Assembly (NCBI GenBank): GCA_037141675.1
Contig: JBAXCC010000002.1
Location: 1-50,403 of the forward strand
Direction of reading: 5' to 3'
From: a bacterium
GTDB lineage: Bacteria > Verrucomicrobiota > Kiritimatiellia > RFP12 > UBA1067
DNA: 50,403 bases
Under the pieces are notes generated by a model that was not told where the DNA came from, searched no databases, and was given only the letters and a program-made list of their open reading frames with translations. Both the position numbers and the translations under genes were made by a program. The first letter of the stretch is position 1. Each line of letters begins with the position of its first letter. Positions 21 through 8,853 of this stretch are shown here, one piece after another.

Positions 21-926
21 ATGACTGCCTTTAAAAAGTCCCCATGGGTGATCCACTACGATGCTTCGAGCTGCAACGGCTGCGATATTGAAGTGCTCGC
101 CTGCCTGATGCCCAACTTTGATGTCGAACGTTTTGGTATCATCAACACCGGCAATCCTAAGCACGCGGACATCTTTCTGGTGACTGGTTCGGTCAATGTT
201 CAGAACGCACCGGTTGTCCGCAACATCTACGCCCAGATGCCGGAGCCCAAAGTGGTTGTTGCCATCGGCATCTGTGGCACGTCTGGCGGTATTTTCCGCG
301 AATGTTACAATGTGCTGGGCGGTATCGACACGGTGATTCCAGTCGATGTGTATGTCCCTGGTTGCGCGGCGCGGCCGGAAGCAATTATCGATGGTGTGGT
401 CCGCGCCCTTGACGTTCTCGAGGAGAAGCGCCGCTTCATGCTCTCTTCCACGGATGCGGTCGGCGGTGGATTTATCATCAATCGTGCCAACCAGAAGGAT
501 ATCCCGGAAATTCTCGCCTTGCAGAAGATCGCGTATCGCAGTCAAGCCGAGATTTACGGCGATGACAGCGTTCCGGCTTTGGGGCAGACCATGGAAGATA
601 TCACCGCTGCCTTCGACCGGATGATTTTCCTCAAGGCGGTCGTCAACGGCAAGATTATCGGCTCGATTCGTGGCTACCGCGATGGTGACACCGCGTATAT
701 CAGCCGCGTCATTGTGCATCCTTATTTCCAGGGCAGAGGACTGGCAACCCGCTTGATTCGCCAGATCGAGCAGGAGGTCGGCGACGTTCGTATTTTTGAG
801 GCTTTCACGGGACATCAGAGCGCCCAGAATCTTCACCTCTACGGGAAGCTGGGGTACCGTCAGGTTCGCACCGAACCGTTTACCCCGACCGTGAATTGGG
901 TTTACTTGCAGAAGGAGCGGAAATGA
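21..926 (+). CDS. Group-4 (Ech-type) [NiFe]-hydrogenase small subunit (NuoB/EchC/HycG-like) fused to a C-terminal GNAT N-acetyltransferase domain
   Basis: 301 aa. Residues 1-~150 carry the NuoB-type four-Cys pattern for the proximal [4Fe-4S]: SSCNGCDIE, GICGTSGG, VPGCAARPE. Residues ~160-301 carry GNAT motif A (VHPYFQGRGLATRLI, i.e. Q-x-x-G-x-A) and YGKLGY. The stop overlaps the next start (ATGA at 923-926). A TGA at 18-20 just before the ATG suggests an upstream gene ends at the window edge. Confidence 0.85.
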   Translation: MTAFKKSPWVIHYDASSCNGCDIEVLACLMPNFDVERFGIINTGNPKHADIFLVTGSVNVQNAPVVRNIYAQMPEPKVVVAIGICGTSGGIFRECYNVLGGIDTVIPVDVYVPGCAARPEAIIDGVVRALDVLEEKRRFMLSSTDAVGGGFIINRANQKDIPEILALQKIAYRSQAEIYGDDSVPALGQTMEDITAAFDRMIFLKAVVNGKIIGSIRGYRDGDTAYISRVIVHPYFQGRGLATRLIRQIEQEVGDVRIFEAFTGHQSAQNLHLYGKLGYRQVRTEPFTPTVNWVYLQKERK

Positions 927-1315
927 TTGAAGAACAGACTATTATAGCCGTCATGCCGGAAACGCTGGTGGCCGAAACGCGCAAGATGCGCGATCAAGGT
1001 TATCGACTGGTCCAAATCTGCGTCACGCGGCTGGGCGAAGAACTCCAGCTGGACTACAGCTTTGACCTTAACCGTAAGTTCGTCAATTTCCGCTTCCTCC
1101 AGCCCAAAACAGGAGCGCGTGTTCCGAGCGTCAGCGGTATCTACTGGTGCGCCTTCACCTACGAGAATGAGATCAGCGATCTCTTCGGCGTTCAGGTAGA
1201 TGGCAATGCCCTCGATTTCAAAGGCACGTTCTACAAGACCGCTATGAAGCATCCGTTTATTCAAGACGCCGCGCCGGCATCCGTTCCTGCCCCGGCCAAA
1301 CCGGAGGTCAAATAA
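923..1315 (+). CDS. NuoC/EchD-like hydrogenase subunit (30-kDa family, short form)
   Basis: ATG at 923 is preceded by GGAG (914-917) and overlaps the upstream stop. 130 aa (MIEEQTIIAV...FTYENEISDLFGV...). It sits between the small and large subunits as in echABCDEF. The longer ORF-track start at 896 lies inside the upstream gene. Confidence 0.75.
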   Translation: MIEEQTIIAVMPETLVAETRKMRDQGYRLVQICVTRLGEELQLDYSFDLNRKFVNFRFLQPKTGARVPSVSGIYWCAFTYENEISDLFGVQVDGNALDFKGTFYKTAMKHPFIQDAAPASVPAPAKPEVK

Positions 1316-1317
1316 TT

Positions 1318-2397
1318 ATGGGTACCCGTACTATCATTCCATTCGGTCCGCAGCATCCGGTGCTTCCGGAACCGATCCATATTGACTTGGTGGTCGAAGA
1401 TGAAAAGGTCGTCGAGGCCGTTCCATCCATCGGCTTTATCCACCGCGGACTGGAAAGGCTGGTCGAGAAGAAAGACTTCATCGAGTACGTCTATGTCGCT
1501 GAACGCATCTGCGGTATCTGCAGCTTCATCCATGGCCAGACCTATTGCCAGGGTATTGAAGAGATCATGAAGATTGAGGTCCCGACGCGCGCCAAGTATC
1601 TGCGTACGATCTGGGGCGAGCTTTCCCGCATTCACAGCCATCTGCTGTGGGCTGGTCTGATGGCAGATGCCTTCGGTTTCGAATCCCTGTTCATGCATAG
1701 CTGGCGCGTTCGCGAACAGGTTCTGGATATCATCGAAGCAACGACTGGCGGACGCGTCATCTTTGGGTCCTGTCGAGTAGGCGGCGCCCGTCGCGACATT
1801 TCACCGGAACAGATGACTTGGTTGCTGAAGCAGATGGACGTGATCGAGAAGGAGATGCGCCTGATCGTCGATATCTTCATGAACGACAACTCGGTCAAGC
1901 ACCGTCTCTGTGGCGTCGGTGTTATTTCCAAAGAAGATGCTATTTCGCTGGGCGCTGTGGGTCCGACCTTGCGTGGTAGCGGCGTAGCAGATGATATGCG
2001 GCTGTTGAAGTACGCTGCTTTTGGCGAGCTTGAGTTTGCGCCGATTACGAGAACCGAAGGCGATTCCTATAGCCGTTGCGCAGTGCGCTGTGCCGAGCTG
2101 TTCCAGTCTGTTGACCTGATCCGTCAGGCAGCGGCGAAAATACCTGCAGGCGAAATTGCTGTCAAAGTCACCGGTAACCCCAACGGTGAATTTTTCTCGC
2201 GCGTTGAACAGCCCCGAGGTGAAGTGGTTTATTACATCAAGGGCAATGGCACCAAGAACCTGACCCGGTTCCGCGCCCGTACGCCGACGTTTGCCAATGT
2301 GCCGCCGCTGGTCAAGATGCTGGCAGGCTGCGAGTTGGCCGATGTTCCTGTTCTGGTACTGACCATTGACCCTTGCATCAGCTGCACGGAGAGGTAA
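1318..2397 (+). CDS. [NiFe]-hydrogenase large subunit, group 4 (NuoD/EchE-like)
   Basis: 359 aa. N-terminal Ni-Fe ligand motif RICGICSFIH (RxCGxCxxxH, ~1504-1533). C-terminal DPCISCTER (DPCxxCxxR) is the very end of the protein. Size and NuoD-like blocks are typical of energy-converting (Ech/Coo/Mbh) enzymes. Confidence 0.93.
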   Translation: MGTRTIIPFGPQHPVLPEPIHIDLVVEDEKVVEAVPSIGFIHRGLERLVEKKDFIEYVYVAERICGICSFIHGQTYCQGIEEIMKIEVPTRAKYLRTIWGELSRIHSHLLWAGLMADAFGFESLFMHSWRVREQVLDIIEATTGGRVIFGSCRVGGARRDISPEQMTWLLKQMDVIEKEMRLIVDIFMNDNSVKHRLCGVGVISKEDAISLGAVGPTLRGSGVADDMRLLKYAAFGELEFAPITRTEGDSYSRCAVRCAELFQSVDLIRQAAAKIPAGEIAVKVTGNPNGEFFSRVEQPRGEVVYYIKGNGTKNLTRFRARTPTFANVPPLVKMLAGCELADVPVLVLTIDPCISCTER

Positions 2398-2401
2398 ACT
2401 T

Positions 2402-2731
2402 ATGGCATTTTTCCAAATGAAAAAAATGATTCTGGCGTGGACGTTCCGTACGCCAGTCACGACCAAGTATCCGTTTGAGCCGAGGAAGATATGTCCTGGT
2501 TCGCGGGGTCGTCTCGATGTCAAAATTACTGATTGCATCTTCTGCACCTTGTGCGACAAGCGTTGCCCGACTCAGGCGCTGGATGTCGATAAGGCGAACA
2601 AGAAGTGGCACATCGATCGTCTGCGCTGCATCTCCTGCGGGTATTGCGTCGAAGTCTGCCCGAAAAAATGTCTGCACCTCACCGGTGATCATGGCATTCC
2701 GACTGTGACCAAGGAAATGGAGACCTTCTAA
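2402..2731 (+). CDS. 2x[4Fe-4S] ferredoxin-like hydrogenase subunit (NuoI/EchF-like)
   Basis: ATG at 2402 follows GGAGAGG (~2388-2394). Two CxxCxxCxxxCP motifs are present (CIFCTLCDKRCP, CISCGYCVEVCP). The ORF-track start at 2366 overlaps the large-subunit gene and is less likely. Confidence 0.88.
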   Translation: MAFFQMKKMILAWTFRTPVTTKYPFEPRKICPGSRGRLDVKITDCIFCTLCDKRCPTQALDVDKANKKWHIDRLRCISCGYCVEVCPKKCLHLTGDHGIPTVTKEMETF

Positions 2732-3076
2732 ATGCATGAGGACCACTTGATTGACGGCGTCATCGAGGATGTGAAGCTGCGGATAAAAGCCGCTGGAGCT
2801 ACGCGGGTCAGTCGTATTGTCCTTGAGTTGAGCCCTGATTCGCACATGGGTGAAATATCAGTGGAAATGCATCTGGAATCGCACCTGGCCGAAGAACCAG
2901 CAATGGCCGGCGCGAAAATCGAATATCGCCATGTACCGCCGCGTCTTTTCTGCCCCTCCTGTAATGCGGAGTTTGAACGCCAGCCCGGCGTCTTTACTTG
3001 TCCGCAATGTGCCAAACCCGGTCGTCCCTGTGGCCACCGTTCCGGCTTGCGGGTGCTTGAGGTGGACTTTAACTAA
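2732..3076 (+). CDS. hypA: Hydrogenase nickel-insertion protein HypA
   Basis: 114 aa. N-terminal MHE nickel-site motif and a CPSC...CPQC zinc site. It lies directly after the hydrogenase structural genes; its stop overlaps the next ATG (TAATG at 3074-3078). Confidence 0.9.
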   Translation: MHEDHLIDGVIEDVKLRIKAAGATRVSRIVLELSPDSHMGEISVEMHLESHLAEEPAMAGAKIEYRHVPPRLFCPSCNAEFERQPGVFTCPQCAKPGRPCGHRSGLRVLEVDFN

Positions 3077-4392
3077 TGTGCTATGCGCTTCCAGGTGTTG
3101 TGACAGAGATTAACGGTCGCAACGCCGTCATCAGCTACTTCGGCGAAATCCGGTCAGCCCTCTCCGAACTCACCAACATCCAGCCCGGCGACTATGTCTA
3201 TGCGCAGGGTGGTTATGTGATCGAAAAAGTCGATCCCGATTTCGCCCGCGAAATGCTCGATACCTGGAACGAACTCTTCGTGGTCTTACAGGAACGCGAT
3301 AACTCCATGTCGGAACGGCCCACGCCGGAGCCGAATGACCGTCCGCTCCAGGATATTCTTGATAAAGCCGGCGCAGGCCTGCCGATCTCCCGTGAGGATT
3401 TGCGCTATCTGCTGACTGTCGAGGAGCCGGATCGTCTCGAACGGCTCTACCGTACAGCCAATGCGGTCCGTCATCTGCATCATCGCAACTCCTGCTGTGT
3501 GCATGGCATCCTCGAAATTTCAAACTATTGCTCCAGTGACTGCCTCTATTGCGGACTGGCCGCCAACTCTACGCTGACCCGTCGCTACCGAATGACCCGC
3601 GACGAGATTCTTGAAGCAGCTAAAGAGGCGATCGAAGGTTTTGGCTTTAAGTCGCTGGTGCTCCAATCAGGCGAAGATCCTGCTTACACGCCGGCTTTTC
3701 TGGCTGAAGTCGTTGCTGAGATCAAACGCCGTCATGGTGTCTTCATCTGTGTCAGCTTTGGCGAAGTCGGCCTTGATGGCCTTGATATGCTTTACGCAGC
3801 TGGCGCCCGTGCCCTGCTGATGCGCTTTGAGACATCGGATGCAAAGCTTTATGCCACGCTCCATCCGGGCGCTACACTGGAGTCCCGGCTGAGTCATCTG
3901 CGTCACGCACTCAACACGGGTTGGCTGTTGGTGACCGGGGGACTGATCGGCTTGCCCGGGCAGACCGTTGATTCACTGGTCGACGACATTCTGCTGACTG
4001 GTGAATTGAGTGCTGAAATGTTTAGCTTTGGTCCGCTCCTGGCCAGTCACCGCCGCCGCGACATTGTTCCGGCGACTGAAGCGCAGATGCTTCGCGTCCT
4101 GGCTGCAGCCCGGATTGCCGCGCCTGCGCAGGCCAAGGTGCTGGTGACCACCGCGTTTGAAACCCTGTCGCCAAATGCCCGTGAACGCGGACTCATGGCC
4201 GGGGCCAGCTCGGTGATGTTGAATGTGACGCCGCTCCGTTATCGCGCCGACTATGCAATCTACGACGGACGTGCCCATGCCACCGAAAGCATTGCCGACC
4301 AGACCCGCGCAATCATCCAGCTCCTCGACCGTCTCGGCCGAGCTCCCAGCGACCTTGGCGTTGCCACTCCTTCGCTCTCTAAGCTGGGGTAG
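3076..4392 (+). CDS. Fusion protein: N-terminal HypC/HupF-type hydrogenase chaperone domain plus C-terminal HydE/BioB-class radical-SAM domain
   Basis: 438 aa. Residues 1-~75 (MCYALPGVVTEINGRNAVISYFGEIRSA...GDYVYAQGGYVIEKVDPDFAREMLDTWNEL) match the HypC pattern with the essential Cys2. From ~residue 130 there are HydE-like blocks: ILEISNYCSSDCLYCGL (CX3CX2C at 3529-3552), RYRMTRDEI, VLQSGEDP, SFGE, RFETSD..LY..LHP, GLIGLPGQT. There is no HydG-type C-terminal Cys cluster. Confidence 0.8.
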   Translation: MCYALPGVVTEINGRNAVISYFGEIRSALSELTNIQPGDYVYAQGGYVIEKVDPDFAREMLDTWNELFVVLQERDNSMSERPTPEPNDRPLQDILDKAGAGLPISREDLRYLLTVEEPDRLERLYRTANAVRHLHHRNSCCVHGILEISNYCSSDCLYCGLAANSTLTRRYRMTRDEILEAAKEAIEGFGFKSLVLQSGEDPAYTPAFLAEVVAEIKRRHGVFICVSFGEVGLDGLDMLYAAGARALLMRFETSDAKLYATLHPGATLESRLSHLRHALNTGWLLVTGGLIGLPGQTVDSLVDDILLTGELSAEMFSFGPLLASHRRRDIVPATEAQMLRVLAAARIAAPAQAKVLVTTAFETLSPNARERGLMAGASSVMLNVTPLRYRADYAIYDGRAHATESIADQTRAIIQLLDRLGRAPSDLGVATPSLSKLG

Positions 4393-4473: not shown

Positions 4474-6072
4474 TTAGCGCAGTTTGCCGCGGACAGCCAT
4501 GGAGAGGGCTTTGGCGAGTTCGGTCTCGTTCCACGGCAGGCAGAAATAAAATATTCCTTGTTGGCGATAAAGTTCGATGTCTGAACGTGCCAGGACCGCA
4601 TTTGCATACGCGATAATCGGCAGACGTTTTGTCTTGGGATTCTCGCGAAGCTGCATGACGAGTTCACGGATATCCATATCAGTGATTCTTCCGTCTAGCA
4701 TCAACAAGGCTGGCGGATGCTCGAAACAGGTGTCGCGCAACAGACTCGACCTTTCAAAGAAGGTCAGGCCATACCCGAGCTTCTGAATATGTTCCGTGAG
4801 GAAGACTGTGATGGCAGTATCTTGCGAAAGAGCCATGACCAGTGGAGCCTGTGCAAGGGGGAGCTCGACGTAGACAGCGGTGCCGCAGGTGGTTCCTTTA
4901 ACAGGACTTTCAAAGGTGATGCCTCCGCCATGAAGGTCGATGATTTCACGTGAGATCGCCAGCCCAAGTCCAGTTCCAGCCACATGGTCTCCGGCGCGGA
5001 CAAATCGTTGTGCCAGCTTGGGCAGCATCTCGGGGGAGACGCCCATGCCCGTATCACAGACAGACAAGAGCGCTGTGTTGGTTTTTGTTGGCGACCGGCT
5101 GAGGGAGATTGTGATGTTTCCCTTTTCCGGAGTGAATTTAATGGCGTTGCCTACGATGTTGAGCACGACGCGTTCCATTTTTTGTGCGTCACAGTGGCAG
5201 AACAATTCAGGGGTTGGGATGTTGAGCCGTATATCAATGTGCTTTGCGTCAGCCTGGATTTGAACAGGATTGAGGCCGTCATGAATGAAGGTGCTAATCG
5301 GAACGACCTGTTTGGTGAGCACGAGGCTCTTGTTCTCGATCTGGCTGACATCCAGGATGTCATTGATGGTTGCCAGAAGCCGTTGGCAGTCCGCCTGTAG
5401 TCGCTCCAGATAGCGCATCGCCTTTTCTGGCATGGCACCGACCACGCCGCGAATCATGTTGTTGACCGCGTAGACCATGGAGGTCAGTGGCGTCCGTAAT
5501 TCATGGGAGACATTCGAGACGAATTCCAGCCGAGCCCGGTCATGTGCCTGAAGGCGTTCATTCGCATCTTGAAGCGCGCAGATCGCATTGTGGCGGACCG
5601 TCATGTCGCGGATAAAAAAGCAGAGTTGCCCATGCGCGTCAAGTTCGACTTTGTTGATGGCGATTTCAGCAGGAAAAGAGGTGTTGTCCGACCGTTTGCA
5701 GTACGCATCGACGAGTGTATATTTCTGATCAGCCAGGTTGGTTTGAATTGTGGTGATCAGCGAGGGGGTTGCGCCGGAGATGAGCCTGACGATGGATTGC
5801 TCAATAAGGTCGTGAGACGGTTGAAGGAAAAATTCAGATGCGCGTTGATTGCACTCCAGAATTTTTCCTTCAAGGTCTGTAATCAGCACAGCATCATAAA
5901 CGCTCTCGAGCAGTTTAAAGAATGACGTGCTTCGTTCGGTTGCATGCAGACGCCACGAGCGACGGAAACGGACCTTTGTCGACTTTGTTTGTGTCGTGTG
6001 CGTATCGATCTCGCTGGGTGCGATATCGATACGCATGGTTCTGTTATCCTGAAGAATGGCGTCCGAAGACAT
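4474..6072 (-). CDS. Cytoplasmic PAS-domain hybrid sensor histidine kinase with a degenerate C-terminal receiver domain
   Basis: 532 aa with no obvious TM segment. PAS-like region (LLESVYDAVLITDLEGKILECNQRASEFF). H-box FVSNVSHELRTPL, N-box VLNIVGNAIKFT, G-boxes DTGMGV and GTGLGLAISREII. The C-terminal ~125 aa are CheY-like with the acceptor Asp context LLMLDGRI, but the N-terminal acidic pair and the conserved Lys appear to be replaced. The start overlaps the upstream stop (TAATG at 6070-6074). Confidence 0.88.
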   Translation of the reverse strand: MSSDAILQDNRTMRIDIAPSEIDTHTTQTKSTKVRFRRSWRLHATERSTSFFKLLESVYDAVLITDLEGKILECNQRASEFFLQPSHDLIEQSIVRLISGATPSLITTIQTNLADQKYTLVDAYCKRSDNTSFPAEIAINKVELDAHGQLCFFIRDMTVRHNAICALQDANERLQAHDRARLEFVSNVSHELRTPLTSMVYAVNNMIRGVVGAMPEKAMRYLERLQADCQRLLATINDILDVSQIENKSLVLTKQVVPISTFIHDGLNPVQIQADAKHIDIRLNIPTPELFCHCDAQKMERVVLNIVGNAIKFTPEKGNITISLSRSPTKTNTALLSVCDTGMGVSPEMLPKLAQRFVRAGDHVAGTGLGLAISREIIDLHGGGITFESPVKGTTCGTAVYVELPLAQAPLVMALSQDTAITVFLTEHIQKLGYGLTFFERSSLLRDTCFEHPPALLMLDGRITDMDIRELVMQLRENPKTKRLPIIAYANAVLARSDIELYRQQGIFYFCLPWNETELAKALSMAVRGKLR

Positions 6073-6491
6073 TACTCGTGTGACTTATTTTTAGCTTCGT
6101 TTACGCGAAGCTTTCGACCGAAGATATCCTTATCGTGAAGCGCCTTAATAGCGGCTTCAGCTTCAGGACGGTTCGGCATTTCGATAAAGCCATACCCTTT
6201 GGACTTGCTGTTGAAGCGATTGGTAATAATGCGTGAGGACTTGACTGCGCCATAACGCTCGAACTCCTTGCGCATTTGTGCTTCAGTCATGTCGTAGCTT
6301 AGGTTGCCGACATAGATTTCGACGCAGGAGCCATCGCCGTAGCTTTCGCTCTCGCCTCTGCTGCTGCGGCGGCCGCCTGATTTGGCGATGATGAGGCCGA
6401 TGACGAGGCCGAGAAGGCCTGTTGCGACTAAGATGCCTACGGATACGGGATCTGTAACCATGGCGGTTAATTTGGTCATTAGTTGATTCAT
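6072..6491 (-). CDS. RRM (RNP-1) RNA-binding protein with an N-terminal transmembrane anchor
   Basis: RNP2 IYVGNL and RNP1 KGYGFIEM in a ~80-aa C-terminal RRM. The N-terminus has one strongly hydrophobic helix (VSVGILVATGLLGLVIGLIIA) followed by a basic/Ser-rich linker. ATG at 6491 is preferred over the TTG at 6497 used by the ORF track; AAGGA lies upstream. Confidence 0.85.
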   Translation of the reverse strand: MNQLMTKLTAMVTDPVSVGILVATGLLGLVIGLIIAKSGGRRSSRGESESYGDGSCVEIYVGNLSYDMTEAQMRKEFERYGAVKSSRIITNRFNSKSKGYGFIEMPNRPEAEAAIKALHDKDIFGRKLRVNEAKNKSHE

Positions 6492-6540
6492 ACTCAAGAT
6501 TTTTCCTTGATTTATGTGTGTTGGATGAGGAAGGCTATGC

Positions 6541-8853
6541 TTAACGCGTTTCCAGGAAGCCTTCCAGTTTGCGCATACGGGTGGGATGTCTCAGCTTACG
6601 GAGCGCTTTCGCTTCAATCTGACGGATACGTTCACGCGTCACGTTAAACTGCTTGCCAACCTCCTCCAGCGTACGGGAATAACCATCGGTCAAACCGAAG
6701 CGGTAATCCAGCACCTGGCGTTCACGGTCGGCAAGGGTTGTCAGCACTTCCTGCAGACGTTCCTTCAGCATGCTATATGCGGTCATCTCTGAAGGACTCT
6801 CTGCGGACTTATCTTCAATGAAATCGCCGAAATAAGCGTCATCACCGTCGCCAACCGGGCTCTGTAAGGAGATCGGTTGCTGTGCCATGCGGTAAACCGC
6901 GCGCACACGGTCAACGGGAATATCCATTTCTTCTGCGGCTTCTTCAGGCGTCGGTTCACGTCCCAGTTCCTGCACCAACTTCTTTTGGACGCGGAGCAGC
7001 TTGTTGATGGTCTCAATCATGTGAACGGGGATGCGAATCGTGCGGGCTTGGTCTGCGATTGCACGCGTCGCTGCCTGACGAATCCACCATGTGGCATACG
7101 TGCTGAACTTATAGCCACGGCGATATTCGAACTTCTCAACGGCTTTCATTAGACCAGTGTTTCCTTCTTGGATCAGGTCGAGGAATGAAAGGCCACGGTT
7201 CATGTACTTTTTGACAATACTGATCACGAGTCGAAGGTTTGCTTCTACCATCTCAGTACGTGCTTTCTGTCCGTTGCGCAAGATATCGCGCAGGGATTCG
7301 AACTTCGTCATGAACTCTTGCGGGTCCATGGCGAATTCTTGTTCAATCGCGTTAATACGCGTTGAGAGATCCTGGACAATCTGGTCACGCTTCTTCGTCT
7401 GGCGTTGCTTTAATTGCTTCGCCCGTTCGTTCAGCATGCTCTTGTACGGACGGTAGATCTTTTCGTCTGCTTCCGTGCAAAGGCTTTCCAGGATTTTCTG
7501 TTTGAAATTTAAATTGTAAAATACTTCCACCAGGTCATGTCGCGACTTTTCAAGGCCCTTCGTAGCCTTTTTCAGCTTGTCTTCTTTTTTGCCGGCAGAA
7601 CAAACGTCCTCATACGCCTTCAAAAGTTTGGACTTGGCGGTATGGAGGCTCTTCTTGACCTTGTCGACACCTTCCATGTAGGCGTCACGGCTATCGACGA
7701 ACTTGTCAGTGACCACGCGGTCGAAACGTTCGACGCCTGTTTCGAGCCGGTCAATCAATTCGAGATAGAGCCGAGGCGTAAAGCCGAACTGGTTGAACAT
7801 TTCGCGCTCTTTGCTTTCGGCGTATTCAATGCGCTTGCAGATTTCAACTTCCTGTTCGCGTGTCAGCAAAGGCACTTGACCCATCTGATGCAGATACATG
7901 CGTATCGGGTCATCAAAGAAGTCCATCCGGCTGCCACGGCCGGCGCGATTGCCCTCGCTCTCGAGTTCGCTACGGAAACGTTCGACTTCTGAAGCGTCGA
8001 TGATTTCGATATCCATGCCGCGCAAAATAGCCAAGTAGGATTCGATGTCCGTATCGCGGATGAGGGAATTGGGTAGGGCCTCGTTAATATCGTCGTAGGT
8101 TAAATAGCCACCTTGATTTTCTGCACGCTTGATCAACGACTTAATACGCTCGCTACGTTCTTCGCGTTTTGCTTTTGCGTCTGCGGCGTCAGCATCGAGG
8201 ACAAGCTCAGTCTCATAACCGACGGAAAACTCGGTTCCGTCGGCAACCTCAAATCTCATCTCTTCCGAGTCGCTGGTGTCGGGCTCAGCTGTGAACGCAT
8301 CCGCGTCATCGATGATCTCGCCGTCCAGCGCCAAATCGTCATGGTATGGGCGAACGCGTTCGCTCTCCGCAGCTTGATTATAAAGCTCTTCGGCGTCAAA
8401 ATTTAAATCTTCGGCAGTGGGTTCTTCATTCTCCGCCCCCAAATCGAGTTCGCCACCTGGCTTCTTGATCTTTTCTTTGTCGGGAGACACATTCTTAGGG
8501 TTCTTTTTTTTGCCCTTTTCCGCTAAGGTTGCTACCGGCTTACTGGGGGTCGCGATGACGTCGTTTTTTGCTTTAGCTTGTTTCGTCGCATCCTGCTTCT
8601 TGGGTGCAACCGTTGCCTTTGCAGGCTTTGCGATCTTTGCAGGCGCTTTGACGGTTGTTTTTGTCTTGGCGGAAACCTTGACAGTCTTTGCAGGTGGATG
8701 AACAGGCTTCTTCGCCTTGGTTACCGGCTTGGCAGATTTCTTAGTTGCAGGAACGTGAGCCTTTGCAACTGGTTTGTGAATGGGCATGACCTTTTTAACG
8801 GGTTTTTTAGAATCAATCGCCTTCTTCTTTTGAGGTGTCTTTTTTGCTGCCAT
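6541..8853 (-). CDS. rpoD: Primary RNA polymerase sigma factor (sigma-70, RpoD) with a ~135-aa lysine/alanine/proline-rich N-terminal extension
   Basis: 770 aa. Region 2 ([27 protein letters not shown]), region 3, and region 4.2 ([30 protein letters not shown]) are present, plus an acidic region-1.1-like stretch. The N-terminus is [21 protein letters not shown]...[12 protein letters not shown]. Confidence 0.96.

Follow-up and report, generated by a model that had tools for sequence, protein, structure and literature searches.

Why would the iron chaperone of [NiFe] hydrogenase maturation be joined in a single polypeptide to a radical S-adenosylmethionine (SAM) enzyme related to HydE? This question was raised by a gene, hereafter hypC::hydE*, found in a 50,403-nucleotide stretch of DNA from a bacterium of the class Kiritimatiellia (GTDB lineage Verrucomicrobiota; Kiritimatiellia; RFP12; UBA1067; assembly GCA_037141675.1, contig JBAXCC010000002.1, positions 1 to 50,403 of the forward strand), which we call the window. 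An initial annotation, made from the sequence alone, had described an uninterrupted open reading frame (ORF) of 438 codons encoding a HypC chaperone followed by a radical SAM enzyme, and had proposed that radical chemistry acts on HypC-bound iron. In our analysis the protein combined a diverged HypC-type domain with a specialised form of HydE, here HydE*, and genes of this family were linked both to HydG and to [NiFe] hydrogenases; we tentatively favour a hand-off of an iron fragment from HydG through HydE* to HypC. The gene and its features are given below, with positions in the window.

3076..4392, + strand: hypC::hydE* fusion gene, 438 codons plus stop in a single uninterrupted ORF, with hidden Markov model (HMM) matches on both domains
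3076..3240, + strand: HypC-type beta-barrel domain (PF01455), residues 1-55, with Cys2 at 3079-3081 and Gln44 at 3205-3207
3241..3375, + strand: long helix and linker, residues 56-100, with the model helix at 54-78 and invariant W64, F68 and D75
3376..4350, + strand: HydE-like radical SAM (beta-alpha)8 barrel, residues ~101-425, from TIGR03956, phmmer with T. maritima HydE (TmHydE) and Foldseek
3496..3504, + strand: Cys141-Val-His143 where strand beta1 begins, the signature of the clade, in place of the [H/Y/F]-x-Arg of canonical HydE (H52 and R54 in TmHydE)
3529..3552, + strand: CX3CX2C radical SAM motif, C152/C156/C159, from the sequence and invariant in the fusion alignment
4018..4020, + strand: Met315, by alignment the equivalent of TmHydE M224, invariant in the fusions
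4216..4218, + strand: Met381, by alignment the equivalent of TmHydE M291 (the 'backflow valve'), invariant in the fusions

The ORF was confirmed as described, including its overlap with hypA, whose stop codon TAA (3074-3076) shares one base with the ATG of the fusion (3076-3078) to give TAATG. All the motifs quoted in the initial annotation were likewise found in the translation: MCYALPG and GDYVYAQGGYVIEKVD in the N-terminal part and, in the radical SAM domain, SNYCSSDCLYCGL, which holds C152, C156 and C159, together with RYRMTRDEI, VLQSGEDP, RFETSD and GLPGQT.

Identity of the two domains

The HydE model TIGR03956 matched residues 103-421 of the fusion with 215 bits (E = 1.4e-63), under its equivalog cutoff of 254.6 bits, and five other fusions gave 223-246 bits with the same model. 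A phmmer comparison with the PDB aligned TmHydE end to end (E = 5e-55). Lower scores were obtained with the models of PylB (121 bits), BioB (77), ThiH (68), HydG (58) and HmdB (46). The initial annotation had placed this domain, from about residue 130, in the HydE/BioB/HcgA branch; the radical SAM assignment held and could be narrowed to the HydE class, with homology starting at about residue 100. An AlphaFold2 model of the protein, built from 38 homologues, gave a confident two-domain prediction (predicted local distance difference test, pLDDT, 90.1; predicted template modelling score, pTM, 0.90). In Foldseek its best PDB matches were ten TmHydE entries, with template modelling (TM) scores of 0.90-0.95 and a root-mean-square deviation of 1.6 Å to 7o1p, followed by PylB (TM 0.87) and BioB (TM 0.83-0.85).

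Source labels on the relatives were mixed. Some are named HydE by NCBI, many are called 'biotin synthase' by JGI, and others appear as 'radical SAM protein' or 'HypC family chaperone'; NCBIfam release 20 holds no model for a HypC-HydE fusion. The 'biotin synthase' label would suit a housekeeping enzyme of the BioB or PylB type, but the domain reached 77 bits against a cutoff of 225 for BioB (TIGR00433) and 121 against 348 for PylB (TIGR03910), the structural ranking was HydE, then PylB, then BioB, and a fusion-carrying Caldatribacterium is a predicted biotin auxotroph (PMC13408713). This explanation, and with it the possibility of a fusion made by the assembly, which is contradicted by the conservation described below, can practically be discounted. 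HmdB/HcgA was rejected as well (TIGR03957, 46 bits against a cutoff of 321), as were ThiH and HydG, on their HMM scores and on the fold ranking.

Residues of known importance in HydE were retained. Met315, Met381, Thr358/Thr359 and Arg250 were invariant in the fusions and correspond to M224, M291, T268/T269 and R159 of TmHydE, of which M224 is a thioether ligand of an Fe(CO)2(CN)Cl species; the roles of the other residues have been described in the same work (PMC10114646).

The HypC character claimed for the first ~75 residues was borne out by both models used: Pfam HupF_HypC (PF01455) matched residues 1-64 with 49 bits (cutoff 28.5), and TIGR00074, run on residues 1-90, gave 48.2 bits (cutoff 48). 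The closest solved structure was T. kodakarensis HypC (E = 2.7e-11). Cys2 and Gln44 were invariant in the 38 aligned fusions, the latter standing in all 38 at the place of the canonical HypC histidine, so that a conserved histidine was not found there; in a more divergent fused lineage with the N terminus 'MCLTIPG' the counterpart was Thr, Ala or Tyr. The canonical histidine was absent from the 13 fused representatives examined (0/13), whereas it is present in the three solved HypCs (H51 of E. coli in 'VLVHVGF', T. kodakarensis 'VIVHTGF' and 3D3R 'VLIHIGF'). Cys2 and His51 of HypC, with Cys41 of HypD, are taken as iron ligands, and their exchange abolishes activity (PMC12134894). The HypC domain was N-terminal in every fusion, and the free amino group of Cys2 is therefore preserved. 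The fused HypC is, in its residues, a diverged type that lacks the histidine of canonical HypC.

A Cys-x-His subclade of HydE

A neighbour-joining (not maximum likelihood) tree built from 150 domains put the proteins fused to HypC together and separately from TmHydE. In a HMMER search with the radical SAM domain alone, fusion-length proteins ranked first and HydE proteins of canonical length came after them. The subclade is marked by the change at Cys141-Val-His143: the 150 aligned sequences comprised 30 with Cys-x-His, 109 with Arg and 11 with other residues at this signature. One of the 120 rows without Cys-x-His was a HydG outgroup; of the other 119, which belong to the HydE family, 109 carry Arg where TmHydE has R54, within the motif V-[H/Y/F]-[L/I]-R-[G/A]. 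In the clade, this stretch reads Cys-x-His-Gly without exception (30/30). Ser or Thr at position 317 of the query was enriched in the clade without being exclusive to it, and the remaining conserved barrel residues were common to the clade and to canonical HydE.

The clade was monophyletic (bootstrap 160/200) after removal of the signature columns, the fragments and the rogue sequence P0209, whereas its exact bipartition was not recovered when the fragments and P0209 were included (2/200 and 0/200). The AlphaFold2 model has C141/H143 and M315/S317 each at the N-terminal end of its strand and so all at one end of the barrel, and the Cys-x-His change may remodel the 'S3' product site at the bottom of HydE. 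From the alignments and the tree, HydE* is best described as a specialised subfamily or paralogue within HydE.

Connection of the domains and conservation of the fusion

Linker residues W64, F68 and D75 were invariant across the 38 aligned fusions, and the ratio of non-synonymous to synonymous substitution rates (dN/dS) in the linker was 0.06-0.17 in Kiritimatiellia. According to the model, a 25-residue helix (54-78) extends the HypC barrel and is followed by a short non-helical stretch (79-88) and by the N-terminal helices of HydE, and the ten-residue blocks that make up residues 51-100 have mean pLDDT values of 82-92. The connection between HypC and the barrel is thus predicted to be rigid and not floppy.

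In the protein database, both Pfam domains occurred together in at least 120 clusters. Identity to the protein of the window was 85-95% in Kiritimatiellales metagenome-assembled genomes and 50-60% in Margulisiibacteriota, Saganbacteria/WOR-1, Omnitrophota and Caldatribacterium. With one genome per GTDB species, a relative was encoded in 374 genomes; the best 80 of these 374 matches were all full-length fusions, among them Spirochaetota, records that bear the label Planctomycetia and a pair of complete Caldatribacterium genomes. Closed genomes among the 374 include CP187957.1, NZ_CP189974.1 and CP070797.1. The fusion spans at least five phyla, and its conservation beyond the window, on which the initial annotation depended, is evident. 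Two fusion-carrying Caldatribacterium species, C. saccharofermentans and C. inferamans, were reported in pure culture in 2026 (PMC13408713).

The frame was intact in 11 independent Kiritimatiellia assemblies, and this, together with the full-length best 80 matches, excludes an assembly artefact. All three regions of the gene (HypC domain, linker and barrel) had low dN/dS in Kiritimatiellia, 0.05-0.19, values that are approximate owing to saturated dS; the whole fusion gene is under purifying selection.

The initial annotation had not recognised this architecture as characterised, and our literature search agreed, as none of the papers found describes a fusion of HypC with HydE. It was not mentioned in the 2024 Cell paper on archaeal hydrogenases, nor in the Margulisbacteria paper and its supplements. 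Papers on Caldatribacterium, Kiritimatiella and Margulisbacteria contained no inventory of maturases, and the 2025 review of [NiFe] cofactor biosynthesis never mentions radical SAM (PMC12134894). Both domains belong to known families, their combination is undescribed in the literature found, and the fusion stands, as had been supposed, outside the canonical HypABCDEF scheme.

Genomic neighbourhood of the fusion

In the window, hypC::hydE* is the last gene of a [NiFe] hydrogenase operon that extends beyond the left edge, in agreement with the initial annotation. The genes upstream of it are the following.

21..926, + strand: small subunit (NuoB-like) with a GNAT acetyltransferase domain (Oxidored_q6 101 bits, Acetyltransf_1 52.6 bits)
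896..1315, + strand: 30-kDa-like (NuoC/EchD-like) subunit (PF00329, 33.6 bits)
1318..2397, + strand: large subunit of a group-4 (Ech-like) [NiFe] hydrogenase, 359 aa (Complex1_49kDa 198.9 bits, NiFeSe_Hases 45 bits)
2366..2731, + strand: 2x[4Fe-4S] ferredoxin-like subunit, start codon uncertain (Fer4 family matches)
2732..3076, + strand: hypA, 114 aa (PF01155, 55.3 bits; MHE nickel motif and CPSC...CPQC zinc site)

The large subunit has both cysteine-pair motifs (RICGICSFIHG ... DPCISCTER) and is devoid of the C-terminal extension. Another of the loci collected for comparison, L006, shows the same gene order with NuoL-like and NuoH-like membrane subunits preceding it, and the hydrogenase of the window is considered Ech-like on that account. 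In the small subunit with the GNAT domain, NuoB-like residues 1-135 are followed by GNAT residues ~150-290; the same arrangement was found at L006:6953-7867 and in the Kiritimatiellia loci L007-L019, being kept in 13 loci of Ech-like context.

Elsewhere in the window, a sigma-70 factor with a Lys/Ala-rich N-terminal extension of ~300 aa is encoded at 6541..8853 on the - strand. Beside it, at 6072..6497 on the - strand, lies the gene of a small protein that, by eye from the translation, resembles RRM-type RNA-binding proteins and carries an N-terminal hydrophobic segment.

For the comparison of contexts, ORFs from 86 loci plus the window were clustered, genes being called by a simple longest-ORF heuristic. 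Outside Kiritimatiellia, HydG was encoded at most 3 kb downstream of the fusion in 24 of the 54 loci with enough flanking sequence, and within 10 kb in 25 of the 39 assessable loci. It follows the fusion directly or after the gene of a Rex repressor. These neighbours are true HydG by the corresponding model (428-545 bits against a cutoff of 312). HydG was even found in one ORF with both domains: HypC-HydE-HydG fusions were encoded at L045:10001-12766 (921 aa), on the closed Omnitrophota chromosome CP070797.1, and independently at L091:10001-12646 (P0129, 881 aa) and in P0123 (906 aa); a HydE-HydG fusion without HypC also occurred (P0138, 803 aa). Two Cys-x-His HydE genes not fused to HypC (L088, L089) were each followed by HydG, and that of L088 overlaps the 3' end of a [NiFe] large-subunit gene ('...DPCMSCAAHFLKVRWNEA'). 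It is solid that the fusion is a HydE-family enzyme working with HydG.

Upstream, the recurrent order was [NiFe] large subunit, in some cases HycI protease, HypA and fusion, and this order recurs beside a group-3-like tetramer, Mbh/Mrp-like group 4 and Ech-like group 4 hydrogenases (Kiritimatiellia and L006). At L032 the fusion and HydG are followed by a periplasmic-type small subunit, the large subunit, a protease, TatA, TatC, HypA and HypB, in a cluster flanked by genes of two-component regulators. The triple fusion of L091 is placed within the cluster of a group-3 [NiFe] hydrogenase: diaphorase genes are on one side of it, the genes of the small and large subunits on the other, and HypA is encoded downstream. 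Integration of the fusion genes into four kinds of [NiFe] hydrogenase cluster is equally solid. Within 10 kb in the ~90 loci we found no hypD, hypE or hypF, no HydF-like ORF and no stand-alone hypC, and HypB in two loci only.

These data bear on the idea that the HypC-like domain works in [FeFe] maturation only, as a carrier that connects HydG and HydE with HydF or HydA, and takes no part in the maturation of [NiFe] enzymes. Loss of the canonical histidine suggests a role other than that with HypD, and the triple fusions with HydG and the lack of HydF nearby agree with it as well. The conserved place of the fusion right after hypA or hypA-hypB in the four kinds of [NiFe] cluster speaks against it, however, as do the Kiritimatiellia loci, where the gene lies in a [NiFe] operon with no [FeFe] genes within 10 kb, and we hold such a carrier to be highly improbable.

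Several peculiarities of the neighbouring genes were recorded. The Rex redox-sensing repressor gene came directly after the fusion in 17 of the 54 assessable loci outside Kiritimatiellia (e.g., L005:11321-11977), between the fusion and hydG or an [FeFe] hydrogenase operon. In most non-Kiritimatiellia loci the upstream HypA is an 80-aa 'mini-HypA' that keeps MHE and has lost the zinc-finger (CxxC...CxxC) domain (L005:9722-9964, L001:9753-9995, L042:9745-9987 and L091:18951-19205), whereas the HypA of the window retains the zinc finger. A subtype of HydG (474-512 aa, >420 bits with TIGR03955) has the C-terminal motif SFCTAGYRCGRTGKC...(13)...FC, i.e., CX5CX5CX13C instead of the canonical CX2CX22C; it was found at L005:11981-13480, L052:11112-12611, L044:11970-13466 and 11 other loci, together with the fusion in Mbh-type [NiFe] contexts. 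The periplasmic-type [NiFe] small subunit at L032:12855-14837 (660 aa) carries bacterial Ig-like domains after NiFe_hyd_SSU_C. The unfused Cys-x-His HydE and true HydG (545 bits) at L089:4766-7208 are on an archaeal-looking contig that also encodes a histone-fold protein and inositol-1-phosphate synthase; no hydrogenase gene was found within the 13.8 kb examined.

Comparison with HydE and HypC proteins

With HydE of T. maritima (PDB 3CIX, 7O1O, 7O1T), the fusion protein shares the full (beta-alpha)8 fold, the CX3CX2C motif, equivalents of M224, M291, T268/T269, R159 and also E161, and the genetic partnership with HydG. It differs in its score under the equivalog cutoff, in forming a separate subclade, in the replacement of R54 by His and of H52 by Cys, in lacking the auxiliary-cluster cysteines, in the HypC domain attached at the N terminus, and in the location of its gene, which lies in [NiFe] operons and has no HydF in its vicinity. 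With HypC, HybG and HupF it has in common the N-terminal Met-Cys, the OB-fold barrel followed by a C-terminal helix, the passing of both family models and a gene placed after hypA(-hypB) inside hydrogenase operons. Unlike them, it lacks the conserved histidine (E. coli H51), which is replaced by Gln or, in the fused lineages that are more divergent, by Thr, Ala or Tyr; it is covalently joined to a 340-residue enzyme, and has no hypD adjacent to its gene.

Proposed route of the iron fragment

The hand-off that we tentatively favour would feed an iron fragment from HydG through HydE* to HypC for [NiFe] maturation; its substrate, the transfer to HypC and the [NiFe] destination are the parts that we infer. 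HydE* would act on the tyrosine-derived [Fe(CO)2(CN)(cysteinate)] synthon of HydG, whose cysteine sulfur would be attacked by the SAM-derived 5'-deoxyadenosyl radical, as in HydE, and the released Fe-carbonyl-cyanide fragment would travel to the bottom of the barrel. There, the mononuclear product would be retained at a putative Cys/His/Met site (C141, H143 and Met315) and passed to Cys2 of the tethered HypC, which would deliver it to the large subunit of the [NiFe] enzyme, the product of a gene shortly before the fusion. CO (and CN) made by HydG could in this way enter the assembly of the [NiFe] cofactor. The HydG synthon is the likeliest substrate because the subclade is tied to HydG by adjacency and triple fusions and keeps the residues of the substrate pocket and of Fe(CO)2CN binding; HypC is, for this reason, more likely to be the acceptor of the product than the iron-bearing substrate.

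The initial annotation was upheld as to an architecture that is conserved and linked to [NiFe] hydrogenases, and modified as to the substrate. Taken literally, its proposal would have the radical act directly on iron held at Cys2 of HypC, the free amine and thiol of this residue taking, for instance, the part that free cysteine has in a complex-B-like species. The covalent and rigid connection of the domains, the Cys2 amine left free by the N-terminal position and the attack of HydE on an Fe-bound cysteine sulfur are all compatible with this. Yet the attack would consume Cys2 and permit a single turnover, unfused pairs of HydE* and HydG exist without an adjacent HypC, and the residues that bind free cysteine are conserved as in TmHydE. 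Direct chemistry at Cys2 is, in our view, improbable.

A number of observations weigh against the hand-off from HydG to HypC. In seven loci (L033, L047, L066, L069, L071, L075 and L079) the operon of a bifurcating [FeFe] hydrogenase lies downstream, in the order Rex, sensor kinase, NuoF-like, [FeFe] HydA (Fe_hyd_lg_C, 337 bits), NuoE-like and HydG, and the fusion may mature [FeFe] enzymes there since it is the only HydE homologue seen at these loci. In the Kiritimatiellia clade of the window, neither HydG nor HydA was found within 10 kb (0/7 loci), nor anywhere in the 50-kb window. The placement of C141/H143 at the S3 site, where R54 of TmHydE reportedly lies according to the 2008 structure paper, is putative and comes from strand topology, not coordinates. 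The ligands do not match either: the synthon has two CO and one CN, the iron of [NiFe] hydrogenases one CO and two CN, and ligand exchange or an input from HypE/F would consequently still be required. Two [FeFe] hydrogenases occur in K. glycovorans, a cultured member of Kiritimatiellia (PMC5148204), and [FeFe] genes may for this reason exist elsewhere in the genome of the window.

A rival explanation is an uncoupled, dual-purpose maturase, in which the radical SAM domain would be the organism's HydE for [FeFe] hydrogenases, acting with HydG and HydF, HypC would serve [NiFe] hydrogenases in the ordinary manner, and the fusion would reflect nothing but the co-regulation of hydrogen metabolism. 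Conserved active-site residues of HydE, adjacent HydG, the [FeFe] HydABC operons without a second HydE, the HydE name given by NCBI to some members and the [FeFe] hydrogenases of K. glycovorans are all in line with it. We nevertheless judge it rather unlikely, given that the near-invariant Arg of HydE is replaced by Cys-x-His clade-wide, the histidine needed for canonical HypC function is lost, a conserved rigid linker is maintained in at least five phyla, genes for HydE* and HydG lie inside [NiFe] operons also when unfused, and HydF is never nearby.

Beyond the hand-off itself, it is conceivable, although doubtful, that several anaerobic phyla possess a radical SAM route that starts from tyrosine, is made up of HydG, HydE* and the tethered HypC, and delivers Fe-CO(-CN) to [NiFe] hydrogenases, a hybrid of [FeFe] and [NiFe] maturation that would supply the anaerobic CO ligand and maybe replace part of HypCDEF. 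HydEF of green algae, reportedly described by Posewitz et al. in 2004 as HydE fused to its scaffold partner HydF, may by analogy offer a precedent for HydE tethered to the protein that takes its product; there the partner is a GTPase scaffold and the destination [FeFe], whereas here it is a HypC-type chaperone, sometimes with HydG in addition. Under the route proposed, the system would also resemble HypX in being an accessory supply of CO to HypC-bound iron. The two show no homology, and HypX is aerobic and uses formyl-tetrahydrofolate, in contrast with the anaerobic, tyrosine-derived radical SAM chemistry envisaged here.

Significance

To our knowledge, no enzyme other than HydG is known to make Fe-CO/CN units without oxygen, and HydG is regarded as serving [FeFe] hydrogenases only. 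A HydE variant that is joined to the [NiFe] iron chaperone, partnered with HydG and encoded within [NiFe] operons is a concrete candidate, open to testing, for a connection between the [FeFe] and [NiFe] pathways. The anaerobic source of the CO ligand has been named a key open problem of [NiFe] maturation (PMC12134894). Even if both pathways were served separately, the family would comprise a new HydE subfamily whose product site is putatively remodelled, together with a type of HypC that lacks the canonical histidine. The existence of fusion-carrying Caldatribacterium isolates (PMC13408713) makes the question experimentally approachable. Taken together, these results suggest that the anaerobes carrying the fusion couple two cofactor-building pathways that have been regarded as separate.

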